64,000 nucleotides of DNA from Escherichia coli (GCF_041886205.1 NZ_CP169029.1), one strand, 5' to 3'. Counted from the stretch's first letter, positions 38,995-44,541 are shown. Notes: generated from the sequence alone by a model not told the origin. A program made the numbers and translations.

Positions 38995-39399
38995 ATGGAT
39001 CAGGTCGTTGTTTTTCAAAAGATGTTTGAGCAAGTGAGAAAAGAGCAAAACTTCTCCTGGTTTTATTCAGAATTAAAACATCACCGTATTGCACATTACA
39101 TTTATTATCTGGCTACGGATAACATCAGAATTATTACTCACGATGACACGGTTTTGTTATTAAGAGGAACCAGAAACCTGTTAAAAGTTAGTACGACCAA
39201 GAACCCTGCTAAAATAAAAGAGGCCGCATTGCTTCATATTTGCGGAAAATCTACATTTCGGGAATACTGCTCAACACTGGCAGGCGCGGGCGTTTTCCGT
39301 TGGGTTACTGATGTTAATCATAACAAACGCAGTTACTACGCCATTGATAATACGCTTTTATATATTGAAGATGTAGAAAATAATAAACCATTAATCTAG
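38995..39399 (+). CDS. ycgX: DUF1398-family protein YcgX, 134 aa
   Basis: Synteny and translation. Confidence 0.8.
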   Translation: MDQVVVFQKMFEQVRKEQNFSWFYSELKHHRIAHYIYYLATDNIRIITHDDTVLLLRGTRNLLKVSTTKNPAKIKEAALLHICGKSTFREYCSTLAGAGVFRWVTDVNHNKRSYYAIDNTLLYIEDVENNKPLI

Positions 39400-40024
39400 C
39401 TAAAGTTGGATGCTTAAGAAATGCTTCATAATTCAGTAAGGCATTAGCATAATGGGAATAAAAGTGCAGAGACCATTCCTATGGTTCTAATACTGCCTTT
39501 TTATTGCCGCCCATAGATGTTCAGTACACCAATACTATAAAATTGATATTGAAATGTACTCCCTTGCTTATTGATACATTATTTTATACGGTTAGTTTGC
39601 TTTTAAAAACAACGGGCGTGCTATACGCCTGTTTCATGGCTTAACCCATATTAATTTTGCTTTATTTTTCATCGCGTTATAAGTTTTTAACCAGCAACGA
39701 GTTATCCTTTACTATAAAGTTCAATAGTTGAGACCTTACCCTCATGTCATGCGTATATTCATTATAATGCTCCTTAGACAAAAAAAGCCAACCATGATGG
39801 TTGGCAAAGTGGCACAAAGTAGCATAAAGGCTATGCTTTAATTACAGAAGGTTCAGTCATTTAAATGTATATCGTTTTATCTAAACAGAACTAAAACGAA
39901 GTGAATGATTTCACTTTTCCACTAAATCTCATTTTGTTTAATCTCTGTTGAGATTCCTTGCTTTAAATTTTGTTTTATAAAACAGTAGCTTTATTTTTTA
40001 ATTGATTTTTAGGTAATATAAAAA

Positions 40025-40279
40025 ATGCAAAATCAAGAAATGAATATCCAAATTAAACTATACGCTTATTTAAATAAATATGACACTCGCCTTACAGAAG
40101 AAAAAATTGCGATTGATAAAGCTATTAGAGAATTACATTTTAGCAGCGAGCATGTTGATAACAAAAAAATAATACTGAAGTTACTTTCATTTTTATCATA
40201 TACAGATGATGTTGTTGAAAAAGACATTATCAGAAATACATTGGAAGTGGTTCTTCTTTTTACTTCCGATGATATTTAA
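40025..40279 (+). CDS. AriR/YmgB-family small protein, 84 aa (paralog of ariR)
   Basis: C-terminal half aligns by eye with AriR (NKKIILKLLSFLSYTDDVVEKDIIRNTLEVVLLFTSDDI versus [39 protein letters not shown]); AT-rich surroundings. Confidence 0.6.
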   Translation: MQNQEMNIQIKLYAYLNKYDTRLTEEKIAIDKAIRELHFSSEHVDNKKIILKLLSFLSYTDDVVEKDIIRNTLEVVLLFTSDDI

Positions 40280-40522
40280 TTGGATTCACTAACTTTATTA
40301 TCAAAATTATTGTCCGAACACTACCTTTCTTACTTATGTTTAATAATAATCACTGCGAATGAGGGGCGCACAACTATATTTTTCTCACACCTGTGATGTA
40401 AAAACACGAGAAAATCCAAATAAAGAACAACATTTGCAATTCCCACCAGATGGATTGCATCACACTTTATTATTCAAAATATTTATCAGCATCATTAAAA
40501 GCCGAAGGATAAGACAAAACAA

Positions 40523-40846
40523 ATGAAGTGGATAGTAATTGACACGGTAATTCAACCTACATGTGGTATATCTTTTTCAGCCATATGGGGTGATATGAAA
40601 ATGATCATCTGGTATCAATCTACTATATTTCTCCCTCCTGGTAGTATATTTAAACCGGTTAAATCTGGTATTATCCTTAAAGATAAAGAATATCCTATTA
40701 CTATTTATAACATCGCACCATTCAACAAGGATTTATGGAGTCTACTCAAAAGCAATCAAGAGTGTCCTCCAGGAGAAAGCAAAATAACAAATAAATGTTT
40801 GCATAATAGTTGCATTATAAAAATATGCCCATATGGGCTCAAGTAA
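40523..40846 (+). CDS. iraM: Anti-adaptor protein IraM (stabilises RpoS under Mg starvation), 107 aa
   Basis: Translation recognised ([23 protein letters not shown]...). Confidence 0.85.
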
Positions 40847-40948: not shown

Positions 40949-42199
40949 TTACATGTTCTTGATGATCGCATCACCAAATTCTGAACATTTCAGCAGTTTA
41001 GCGCCTTCCATCAGACGTTCGAAGTCATAGGTTACGGTCTTGGCGTTGATTGCGCCTTCCATACCTTTAACAATCAGGTCTGCGGCTTCAATCCAGCCCA
41101 TGTGGCGCAGCATCATCTCAGCAGAGAGGATGATAGAGCCAGGGTTTACTTTGTCCTGACCGGCATATTTCGGCGCAGTACCGTGGGTGGCTTCAAACAG
41201 GGCGCATTCGTCACCGATGTTTGCGCCAGGGGCGATACCAATACCACCAACCTGCGCTGCCAGGGCGTCAGAAATGTAGTCACCGTTCAGGTTCATACAG
41301 GCGATAACATCATATTCAGCCGGACGCAGCAGGATCTGTTGCAGGAACGCATCAGCGATCACGTCTTTAATGACGATCTCTTTGCCGGTATTCGGGTTTT
41401 TAACTTTCAGCCACGGGCCGCCGTCGATCAGTTCTCCGCCAAACTCTTCACGCGCCAGCTGGTAGCCCCAGTCTTTAAACGCGCCTTCGGTGAACTTCAT
41501 GATGTTGCCTTTGTGCACCAGGGTCACAGAGTCACGATCGTTAGCAATTGCGTATTCGATCGCTGCACGAACCAGACGTTTGGTGCCTTCTTCCGAACAC
41601 GGCTTAATACCGATACCGCAATGTTCCGGGAAGCGAATTTTCTTCACGCCCATCTCTTCACGCAGGAATTTAATCACTTTCTCGGCGTCGGCAGAGTCAG
41701 CTTTCCATTCGATACCCGCATAAATGTCTTCCGAGTTTTCACGGAAGATAACCATATCGGTCAGTTCAGGGTGTTTAACCGGGCTTGGAGTGCCCTGATA
41801 GTAACGTACCGGACGCAGGCAGATGTAGAGATCCAGTTCCTGACGCAGGGCAACGTTGAGAGAACGAATACCGCCACCAACCGGAGTGGTCAGCGGGCCT
41901 TTAATGGCAACGCGATATTCACGAATCAGATCAAGGGTTTCAGCAGGCAGCCAGACATCCTGACCATAAACCTGTGTGGATTTTTCACCGGTGTAAATTT
42001 CCATCCAGGAGATTTTACGCTCGCCTTTATAGGCTTTCTCGACTGCAGCGTCGACCACTTTCAGCATGGCTGGGGTTACATCTACACCGATTCCATCACC
42101 TTCAATGTAAGGGATAATCGGATTTTCAGGAACGTTGAGTTTGCCGTTTTGCAGGGTGATCTTCTTGCCTTGTGCCGGAACAACTACTTTACTTTCCAT
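40949..42199 (-). CDS. icd: NADP-dependent isocitrate dehydrogenase, 416 aa, full length
   Basis: Translation recognised throughout ([38 protein letters not shown]...). Confidence 0.97.
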
Positions 42200-42369
42200 T
42201 CACCTCTCCTTCGAGCGCTACTGGTTTGCTCGTCTGCCACCACGTTGCATATGCGTTTGCGTCCTGCGATACGGATGCTTTAGAGCAATTTTTGTTAATG
42301 ATTTGTAATTGGCTTGTCAATACTACCCTATTGTTTGCCGTCATGAAAGATGCGCGTTATTAGGCTATA

Positions 42370-42420
42370 ATGCGGCAATTCATAATCTGTGAAAATACCA
42401 TGCAAAAAACTTCTTTTAGA
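42370..42420 (+). pseudogene. rluE: Displaced 5' end of rluE (first 17 codons, MRQFIICENTMQKTSFR) separated from the rest of the gene by a 1.5-kb insertion
   Basis: In-frame continuity with the downstream rluE body across an 11-bp direct repeat; -10-like TATAAT at 42366-42371. Confidence 0.5.
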
Positions 42421-42659
42421 CCAAAGACAGTATTTTTCAGACCTTCAAATAAGGTATTAAATATCAATAATTTACACCAGATTTTAAGCAATAAAAAAAA
42501 CCACCAGAGATAACTAACAGGGTGCTATTTGGTCAAAATTTGACATTACTCGATTCAGCGACTAACTCACTTTGAGCACTATTGGGAAAATTATCAAAAG
42601 TCATGGTTGAAGCGACAAGCAACGAGTAAATTATGGCATCCACCCTTTTTGAGGTTCAC

Positions 42660-42752
42660 ATGAAACGCTTTGCACTGATAGCTGTGACACTCGTTGCCTT
42701 TACTGGTTCTAGTTCTGCATCTGCTGCAACCGAAGAAATCAACTTCAAGTAA
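42660..42752 (+). CDS. Micro-ORF, 30 aa, signal-peptide-like (MKRFALIAVTLVAFTGSSSASAATEEINFK); possibly a decayed N-terminus
   Basis: SD GAGG 5 nt upstream; same frame as the next gene but separated by two stop codons. Confidence 0.25.
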   Translation: MKRFALIAVTLVAFTGSSSASAATEEINFK

Positions 42753-42785
42753 CAGAAACACTATATAACAATGAAGTGTTGAAAA

Positions 42786-43235
42786 ATGGATACTACCGAA
42801 GAACGCAATGGAACATATTTCTACAGAGGACACCCGAACCTGTCCAAAATAGAACTACTCAACGTCATATTCCTTGAAGAATTCTGTAAGGAATTGGGGA
42901 TTGATTCGGTATCAGGTGCAGCAATCTTATCTGGTCAACCTTGGCTGGGTACAAGAGCGAAGCCGCAAGGGGCAACCCTGGGAACAAGTGTTGTCTCAAA
43001 GTATGCGCGTATACTGATGAGAGATGCACGCATGCCTTTTGGTATTTCTGTTCATACACCAGTGGGGGTAAGGATGCAGAAATCTAATAAGCTTGCTGCA
43101 ATTATCGCTCGTTGGGTCCCGTGGATTGGTTGGGCTTCACTGTCGATGAGTCTTTACAGGGTTTCGACTCGTACCCAGGAAAAATACAATCTGATTGCCA
43201 AACCTCAAGACCGTATTAAGTGGACTTCCTTCTAA
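42786..43235 (+). CDS. Hypothetical protein, 149 aa (gene A of inserted cassette); unrecognised family
   Basis: ORF track; AT-richer than flanking core; stop overlaps start of next gene (TAATG). Confidence 0.6.
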   Translation: MDTTEERNGTYFYRGHPNLSKIELLNVIFLEEFCKELGIDSVSGAAILSGQPWLGTRAKPQGATLGTSVVSKYARILMRDARMPFGISVHTPVGVRMQKSNKLAAIIARWVPWIGWASLSMSLYRVSTRTQEKYNLIAKPQDRIKWTSF

Positions 43236-43570
43236 TGGCGACAACAATCACAGACGAAGTTTTAGCACTGTTCCGTGATGAGATTCCAGGTTATCAGGAT
43301 GACCACGGGAAGGAAATTCCGTTAGAACTGGACTCTGATTTGTTCGACTATCCACGAGATGATATAGAGGACGCTATACGGAAATACAAAGAGAGGTTTG
43401 GGATTAACCTGGATAATCTGGACTGGTCTTTGTACCTTCCGTGGGAGTCTGCACCATTGCTTCAACGATGGTTCAAGCTCAAGCGGGAAGAGGTAGAAAC
43501 AACACGTTTACCGTTAACTGTACGGATGTTTGCAGAATCAGCAGAAGCGGGAAAATGGCTGTATCAGTAG
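43235..43570 (+). CDS. Hypothetical acidic protein, 111 aa (gene B of inserted cassette), translationally coupled to gene A
   Basis: ATG overlaps gene A stop (TAATG); track ORF starts at upstream GTG 43220; hairpin terminator-like sequence immediately downstream (about 43575-43600). Confidence 0.6.
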   Translation: MATTITDEVLALFRDEIPGYQDDHGKEIPLELDSDLFDYPRDDIEDAIRKYKERFGINLDNLDWSLYLPWESAPLLQRWFKLKREEVETTRLPLTVRMFAESAEAGKWLYQ

Positions 43571-43902
43571 AATAAAAAAGAAGGCTGCGATGCCCTTCTT
43601 ATTACTGCTGATGATGGTAGTGGTAAAGCATCATCCTGAACTTGAACAGTGAAGTGCTGTCACCCATCAGTAATACAGAAACACTATTTTTCATACCAGT
43701 ATTTATTCAATTCATCAATGTAAAATGTGTTCATTGGGCCATATTTATCACCATGCAGCCACACAACCGCTGCTCACTAACCCAGGTATTGATGAAACCG
43801 CGCTGAAGAGCCTGAACCCTGAACCTCTAATGAGTACCTTCAAAGTCCAATGCAATCCGACACTGTGCTACCCTCTGCGTATAGCTCTATTTGGAATTTA
43901 CT

Positions 43903-44541
43903 ATGAAATACTTTAGCGATTCTAAATCTTCTTTTAGAAAAAAACAGGTTAGTCGACTAAACTCGCAACACTCCACTAAGCGTAAACCTGAAAACCAGCC
44001 CACGCGGGTGATCCTGTTCAATAAACCCTACGATGTTCTTCCGCAGTTCACCGATGAAGCCGGACGCAAAACATTAAAAGAATTCATCCCGGTTCAGGGC
44101 GTTTATGCAGCAGGTCGTCTTGACCGCGATAGCGAAGGGTTACTGGTGCTGACCAATAACGGCGCGTTGCAGGCGCGTTTAACCCAGCCGGGTAAACGCA
44201 CCGGAAAAATCTATTATGTGCAGGTGGAAGGTATTCCCACACAAGACGCACTTGAAGCCTTGCGCAATGGCGTAACCTTAAATGATGGCCCTACCCTGCC
44301 CGCAGGCGCGGAGCTGGTTGACGAACCCGCGTGGTTATGGCCGCGGAATCCACCAATTCGTGAACGCAAAAGTATTCCCACCAGCTGGCTAAAGATCACC
44401 TTATATGAAGGACGTAATCGCCAGGTGCGCCGCATGACCGCCCATGTTGGTTTCCCCACGCTGCGACTGATTCGCTATGCGATGGGTGATTACTCTTTGG
44501 ATAATCTTGCCAATGGCGAATGGCGAGAAGCGACAGATTAA
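43903..44541 (+). CDS. rluE: 23S rRNA pseudouridine(2457) synthase RluE with a substituted N-terminus (212 aa from ATG 43903; alternative TTG 43891)
   Basis: Body of the protein recognised ([27 protein letters not shown]...[17 protein letters not shown]); N-terminal 13 residues come from insert DNA. Confidence 0.75.

Follow-up and report, generated by a model that had tools for sequence, protein, structure and literature searches.

Positions are counted from the first letter of the window, the whole 64,000-nucleotide stretch of Escherichia coli DNA that was analysed, in which the gene order is bluR, ycgX, iraM, icd (minus strand, 40949-42199), rluE, nudJ, mnmA, hflD and purB. At the 5' end of rluE lies a pair of coupled genes, here called A and B, on a segment of imported DNA. 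The features of this region are as follows.

42343-42371, plus strand: sigma-70-like promoter of the original rluE, ATGAAA-17-TATAAT, with 10/12 consensus matches
42370-42420, plus strand: start remnant of rluE, its first 17 codons (MRQFIICENTMQKTSFR), cut off by the insertion, as seen in the alignment to K-12 rluE-icd
42406-42420 and 43924-43938: 15-nt direct repeat AAA(A/T)CTTCTTTTAGA, which flanks the insert and marks both junctions
42421-43923, no strand assigned: insert carrying the A-B pair, 1503 bp, horizontally acquired, missing from K-12
42786-43235, plus strand: gene A, STM2901 family/DUF8209, 149 aa, 16.8 kDa, pI 10.0; putative toxin (type VI effector domain)
43233-43237, plus strand: TAATG stop/start overlap of genes A and B, translational coupling
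43235 (ATG) to 43570 (stop), plus strand: gene B, DUF1493, 111 aa, 13.2 kDa, pI 4.5; putative immunity protein
43566-43609, no strand assigned: hairpin after gene B, -12.3 kcal/mol (z = -3.25) on the plus strand and -9.7 on the minus strand
43903-43985, plus strand: foreign 5' end of the present rluE, with a new start at 43903, imported with the pair

The preliminary description had proposed a translationally coupled gene pair, with a basic protein followed by a small acidic one, and the sequence agrees with it. Two coupled open reading frames lie at these coordinates; the protein of gene A begins MDTTEERNGTYFY... and that of gene B begins MATTITDEV.... As had been claimed, gene A ends and gene B starts in a TAATG, with one base common to the stop codon TAA (43233-43235) and the start codon ATG (43235-43237). 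The same two coding sequences are called by the RefSeq annotation of an identical genome, where they are named as STM2901 family and DUF1493 proteins. We observed that an overlap of the type T[AG]ATG or ATGnTAA is kept in 45 A-B pairs of other Enterobacterales, and comparison with orthologues in other genera gave dN/dS ratios of 0.04-0.18 for both genes. Genes A and B are far beyond chance open reading frames and are under purifying selection. The hydrophobic C-terminal third that had been ascribed to gene A was recovered only as a region of moderate hydrophobicity, with a maximum 19-residue Kyte-Doolittle mean of 1.24 at residues 103-121; no clear transmembrane segment was found by this measure over the whole protein.

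Comparison with K-12 also bore out the location of the pair inside a cassette in rluE and its presence on horizontally acquired DNA. The spacing between rluE and icd in K-12 is 171 bp; here, the 1503-bp insert has been placed within the 5' end of rluE, and its GC content is 42%, as compared with 51-53% for the flanks. The cassette is found at this single site in 374 of 5426 complete E. coli genomes, in which it is 98-100% identical, and it is also present in one cryptic-clade Escherichia. E. coli LHM10-1 and IAI39 are among its carriers. The rluE insertion is an accessory islet in approximately 7% of complete E. coli genomes, and homology with other genera covers the two coding sequences only and not their flanks. 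The remnant of the rluE start opens a 47-aa out-of-context open reading frame (42370-42513). The region of the old rluE promoter is 99% identical to the sequence upstream of rluE in K-12, and the predicted promoter now points into the inserted cassette. The 5' end of the present rluE is approximately 79% identical to the K-12-type allele over approximately 67 nt, the remaining part of the gene being near-identical, and this foreign 5' allele occurs only in the roughly 374 cassette-bearing genomes. The hairpin that had been described 3' of gene B is present. Its plus strand has no U-tract, and the sole terminator-like call of the region is on the minus strand (43596 to 43572), with a T-run. The hairpin resembles a terminator on the minus strand alone, so it probably does not halt transcription from A-B, which is likely to run on into rluE.

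The insert contains an imperfect 22-nt direct repeat (18/22; 42422-42443 and 43676-43697), whose left copy begins at the first imported base, and an exact 13-nt repeat, ACAGAAACACTAT (42752-42764 and 43675-43687), for which 0.14 chance matches are expected in the window. An older insertion unit may have had its ends at these repeats. Shortly before gene A is a 30-aa open reading frame, MKRFALIAVTLVAFTGSSSASAATEEINFK (42660-42752, plus strand), with a signal-peptide-like N-terminus; a 38-aa version of it is annotated in one GenBank phage record, and it is not conserved outside Escherichia. A second 30-aa open reading frame, MKNSVSVLLMGDSTSLFKFRMMLYHYHHQQ (43602-43694, minus strand), runs into the terminator-like site at 43572-43596 on the same strand, so the hairpin may belong to a minus-strand transcript. 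A search of Rfam with positions 42200-44000 returned no matches. K-12 has the e14 prophage integrated in the 3' end of icd; in the window e14 is missing, and positions 38995-40846, directly downstream of icd, hold ycgX, an AriR/YmgB-family gene and iraM. The partial genome deposited as 'Escherichia phage vB_EcoM-689R6' (ON470584.1, locus L059) ends in icd, the A-B pair, rluE, nudJ, mnmA and hflD, and this host chromosome end adjoins an e14-like integrase. Because the record ends in host chromosome, its 100% match to the pair represents prophage-flanking host DNA and not a phage-borne copy.

Gene A matches the NCBIfam profile NF045926, 'STM2901 family protein', with 156 bits (curated cut-off, 110 bits), residues 8-142 aligning to profile positions 1-140 of 140. 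The Pfam family PF26636 (DUF8209) is precomputed on a 99%-identical cluster representative (P0001) and on all of the homologues; our search of Pfam-A profiles with gene A gave no PF26636 match and only a chance match to KELAA. The Pfam and NCBIfam searches placed gene A in no housekeeping enzyme family, an outcome that leaves the toxin proposal of the preliminary description standing, and a sequence search of the PDB with gene A or gene B alone returned nothing significant. When a profile of the gene A domain was searched against 1.84 billion representative proteins, 368 relatives were obtained. Long relatives with a near-complete domain (at least 200 aa; 200-787 aa, n = 25) carry it 0-3 residues from the C-terminus in 25 of 25 cases, and their N-termini are of two types: RHS repeats with a YD-shell and the core-end motif ...YDPxxGRFxxxDP...NPxxxxDPxG, or unrelated lipoprotein-like regions. 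Likewise, relatives in AFDB are labelled 'RHS repeat-associated core domain-containing protein', one of them being a 1128-aa Flavobacterium Rhs protein, and AFDB also holds stand-alone copies of A in Burkholderia, Paracidovorax and Pseudomonas. Polymorphic toxins are recognised by one and the same C-terminal domain recurring on different carriers, and by the architecture of these sequences the A domain is a C-terminal cassette of predicted Rhs/YD polymorphic toxins. In contigs of Bacteroidota, Myxococcota-like and other origin, the Rhs core-end motif is followed by DUF8209 as the final domain, and in several of these contigs a DUF1493 gene comes next. Unlike these Rhs proteins, E. coli gene A stands alone: it begins at a start codon of its own, its N-terminus MDTTEE is conserved, and neither an Rhs shell nor PAAR or any other trafficking domain is attached to it.

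An AlphaFold2 model of gene A, of medium confidence (pLDDT 72), consists of two beta-hairpins, short helices, a disordered conserved loop (TRxKP...GTS) and a 35-residue C-terminal helix, and we found no structural relatives of this model outside its own family. The residues conserved across the family are Y13, L24, G38, D40, G50, G66, T67, S68, S71, R109, P112, G115 and Y134, among which there is no obvious catalytic triad or metal site. The predicted phosphate-binding GTS helix cap and amphipathic helix are the sole hints at a putative activity of A.

Gene B matches the Pfam family PF07377 (DUF1493) with E = 9.6e-30, residues 4-110 aligning to positions 3-107 of the 108-position profile. It has no hydrophobic segment (maximum 19-residue Kyte-Doolittle mean, 0.34), no signal peptide and no transmembrane segment. 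Its predicted fold is a four-helix bundle like that of an acyl carrier protein (ACP), and it shows weak similarity to ACP profiles. The column aligned to Ser36 of AcpP, the phosphopantetheine position, is occupied by P, D, T, L, G and other residues in 22 DUF1493 sequences, with a single Ser, and E. coli gene B is non-Ser there. Gene B also differs from ACPs in a further conserved motif at the C-terminus, PLTvrMf.ESAkAGkWLYD. No DNA-binding domain of the HTH, RHH or AbrB type was detected in gene B, which matches DUF1493 only.

Genes A and B are closely linked in their relatives. In the 51 Enterobacterales loci compared, B comes after A wherever A is intact, which gives 45 overlapping pairs, and the divergence of A is correlated with that of B (r = 0.93). 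Two or three divergent A-B pairs occur in several genomes, as do tandem arrays and fragments. DUF1493 genes were also found directly downstream in three of the five long-protein loci examined: the Rhs-type locus L003 has two copies, the first of which abuts the stop codon, the lipoprotein-type locus L006 has one, and the Rhs-type locus L007 has two. Downstream of the Rhs-type loci L004 and L005 there is no detectable DUF1493, the small open reading frames there giving no significant match to a DUF1493 alignment (hhalign). A fusion of the two proteins through a linker, A-(GGGGS)6-B, modelled with AlphaFold2 from a 31-row paired alignment, had a pLDDT of 66 and a pTM of 0.50, with no gain for A; it gave no confident complex and so lends no computational support to binding.

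We observed a linkage between the pair and hcp in the same 51 Enterobacterales loci. In 26 of them, 12-15 nt separate the end of an intact hcp from gene A, hcp fragments occupy the same place in three, and hcp lies elsewhere within 5 kb in eight, making 11 loci beyond the 26. The upstream open reading frame is Hcp/TssD (TIGR03344, 135-142 bits; cut-off, 58.9 bits). The order in Enterobacter cloacae is tssA - x - A - B - hcp, and on plasmids of Rahnella and E. kobei an Hcp gene adjoins the pair in the independent RefSeq annotation. The usual position of the pair in Enterobacterales is directly behind an orphan hcp or within a T6SS cluster. Islets of the form hcp-A-B, present for example in Klebsiella michiganensis DSM 25444 and Citrobacter amalonaticus, are found between different core genes (copA, mutS, ppsA/ydiJ, yejM, dinG and cyoB), and the A/B cassette in them changes between types of approximately 70/68% and approximately 47/37% identity, with hcp itself remaining approximately 80% identical. 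The two closest relatives outside Escherichia (L011 and L013) and Salmonella STM2901-2902 have no hcp, and a tblastn search with Hcp found neither hcp nor a remnant of it in the 64-kb window. In two 50-kb stretches of the identical genome NZ_CP037903.1 that were read for type VI secretion (T6SS) genes, the region is heavily rearranged.

In 42 other E. coli genomes we observed an hcp'-'DUF1493 remnant, in which a pseudogenised N-terminal part of hcp is joined to the C-terminal end of DUF1493. In E. coli E16 (NZ_CP119726.1; L066, 6789-7111), for example, such a remnant is found, and remnants of this kind adjoin a His-Xaa-Ser (hxsDBCA) cluster in a mobilisable element. As read from its sequence, the remnant is an hcp-toxin-immunity module from which the putative toxin has been deleted.

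The pair is also carried by mobile elements. It occurs on 153 plasmids, 54 of them conjugative, mainly in Serratia, Pantoea, Salmonella and Rahnella. The P2-like Erwinia phage EtG (NC_047833.1; L061, 4001-4761) has a 32%-identical A-B pair between its tail-fibre assembly and tail-sheath genes, which we take to be the slot where P2 carries the accessory gene Z/fun. PHROGs holds both proteins as families of unknown function.

The toxin-immunity layout suggested in the preliminary description is thus supported by the fusion of the domain to the C-terminus of Rhs proteins, by downstream DUF1493 genes and by the linkage to hcp in relatives, and we consider it probable that A-B is an orphan type VI effector-immunity module of the Hcp-cargo type. 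Gene A would encode the DUF8209/STM2901 toxin domain as a small, basic protein in its own right, and gene B its cognate immunity protein, an acidic, cytoplasmic DUF1493 protein of ACP-like four-helix fold that would be made by coupled translation and would neutralise A by direct binding. In the ancestral hcp-A-B arrangement, the toxin would occupy the lumen of the Hcp ring and be shot into adjacent bacteria, and cells with gene B would be protected from it. Since the immunity protein has no export signal, the target of the toxin is most likely cytoplasmic. The E. coli copy would have come without hcp, the start of rluE being replaced by the incoming 1.5-kb foreign segment. The old rluE promoter probably drives transcription of the copy, with read-through into rluE, and the copy may either use an Hcp encoded elsewhere in the genome or persist mainly as protection and addiction. 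Several observations count against this type VI reading, namely the lack of hcp in the window, in the two closest relatives and in Salmonella, the two Rhs-type loci with no detectable DUF1493 downstream, the presence of the pair on 153 plasmids and a P2-like phage with no obvious T6SS genes, and the A-linker-B fusion model, which brought no gain in confidence.

Gene A, at 16.8 kDa, is within the range of known Hcp-lumen cargo, for which sizes of 17.7 kDa (Tse2) and 19.2 kDa (Tse4) have been given (PMC8262886). The putative effector-immunity pair resembles Tse2-Tsi2 of P. aeruginosa, an Hcp-loaded cargo system, in that a small effector is followed by a gene for a cytoplasmic immunity protein. 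Bicistrons of this type can sit away from the main T6SS cluster, and the relatives of A-B are likewise genetically tied to hcp. They differ from A-B in that no similarity of sequence or fold is seen between them and in that the E. coli pair has no adjacent hcp. A second comparison is with Ssp6-Sip6 of Serratia marcescens, a small enterobacterial effector outside the main T6SS cluster whose immunity gene overlaps it by a few nucleotides and for which 'silent' paralogous pairs exist (PMC6889166). Ssp6 forms ion-selective pores, and Sip6 is a 67-aa membrane protein with two transmembrane helices (PMC6889166). A-B belongs to an unrelated family, with a soluble ACP-like immunity candidate in place of a membrane protein, and membership of the Ssp6/Sip6 family was rejected because Sip6 is a different type of immunity protein.

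Within the type VI explanation there is a sub-case, not an exclusive rival, in which the E. coli toxin is silent or cannot be delivered and the locus is kept for immunity against the DUF8209 toxins of Enterobacter, Klebsiella, Citrobacter and others. The lack of hcp in the window is consistent with it, as is the H that E. coli A has where 84% of the family has P. 'Silent' effector homologues with functional immunity have been documented for another small Serratia effector family (PMC6889166), which provides a precedent, and the deletion remnants in other E. coli indicate that such modules decay. If immunity alone mattered, however, loss of A would be expected, and gene A is intact in approximately 370 genomes at 98-100% conservation; the A-B overlap, moreover, ties the translation of B to that of A. 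We regard this sub-case as possible and hold it tentatively, on the doubtful side. Less likely still is a toxin that acts on membranes, by forming pores or by depolarisation, and is not a cytoplasmic enzyme or binder. In the model of gene A, the C-terminus forms a long amphipathic helix (residues 103-137) that contains a small-xxx-small/GxxxG-type motif and conserved W, P and G residues, database submitters have labelled relatives as 'membrane protein' or 'phage membrane protein', the family has no conserved acidic or His catalytic residues, and the Rhs versions of Bacteroidota have glycine-zipper-like linkers. All of these observations would suit a membrane-active protein, but the top hydropathy value of gene A falls under usual transmembrane values, and B is soluble, acidic and unexported, unlike the membrane-embedded immunity protein of Ssp6.

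The pair could also be an intracellular addiction or abortive-infection module that stabilises mobile DNA or kills phage-infected cells and that needs no secretion system. No T6SS gene adjoins the E. coli islet, Salmonella STM2901-2902 or many of the plasmid copies, the pair is found on plasmids, conjugative ones included, and in an accessory slot of phage EtG, and the coupled, toxin-first layout fits such a module. Like type II toxin-antitoxin systems, A-B consists of two coupled genes, for a basic and an acidic protein, and is found on mobile DNA such as plasmids and a phage. It differs from type II systems in that the toxin comes first, in that B has no DNA-binding domain typical of type II antitoxins, and in that the A domain is also fused to secretion-associated carriers such as Rhs and linked to hcp, which is directly upstream in half of the loci. 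The toxin-antitoxin and anti-phage alternatives that the preliminary description had put beside toxin-immunity pairs did not gain from the searches: PADLOC-DB v2 models gave no matches to gene A or gene B up to E = 1, which, together with the missing DNA-binding domain of B, gives no pointer to a classical toxin-antitoxin or catalogued anti-phage system. On balance, we judge an addiction module to be improbable. Much more improbable is a non-toxic pair, with B as a true carrier protein that works together with A, an enzyme, in a small pathway of biosynthesis or modification. The ACP-like fold and weak ACP profile similarity of B would accommodate it, but the phosphopantetheine Ser is missing from B and replaced across DUF1493, and the C-terminal Rhs fusion of A, the hcp linkage and the cassette-like co-divergence of the two genes also count against it; a true carrier-protein role of B was rejected on account of the missing Ser. 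Classical toxin-antitoxin, catalogued anti-phage and true carrier-protein readings fit less well than a type VI effector-immunity pair. The ACP-like fold could instead be that of a decoy: DUF8209 would be a toxin of a fold not seen before that hits ACP or ACP-dependent lipid synthesis, and DUF1493 a decoy that mimics the ACP recognition surface (acidic helix II) and carries no prosthetic group. We think this version improbable, to about the same degree as an addiction module; if true, it would add a new cellular target for contact-dependent toxins and a new immunity logic.

In the searchable literature we found no functional or experimental study of STM2901/DUF8209 or DUF1493; STM2901 appears there only as a landmark beside invH/SPI-1, and DUF1493 only in gene lists. 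Members of both families carry the annotation 'unknown function' in thousands of enterobacterial genomes, among them the Salmonella genes next to SPI-1 from which STM2901 has its name. The comparative evidence places DUF8209 and DUF1493 in type VI/Rhs interbacterial warfare, and A-B is an uncharacterised pair within a well-known kind of system. It would provide one further putative toxin domain for the catalogue, paired with an unusual ACP-like immunity fold, and the E. coli copy is such a module dropped, without its hcp, into the coding start of the housekeeping gene rluE.

Two other arrangements of the pair were observed. IncFII plasmids of Serratia, as seen in S. marcescens pSMC2 (L060, 4340-4975), have a DUF2913 gene immediately before the pair in the place of hcp. 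In Mangrovibacter (L039 and L040, approximately 270-8050), several A-B pairs, A fragments and two or three copies of hcp lie in tandem and in both orientations within 8 kb, in what looks like an effector-immunity array.
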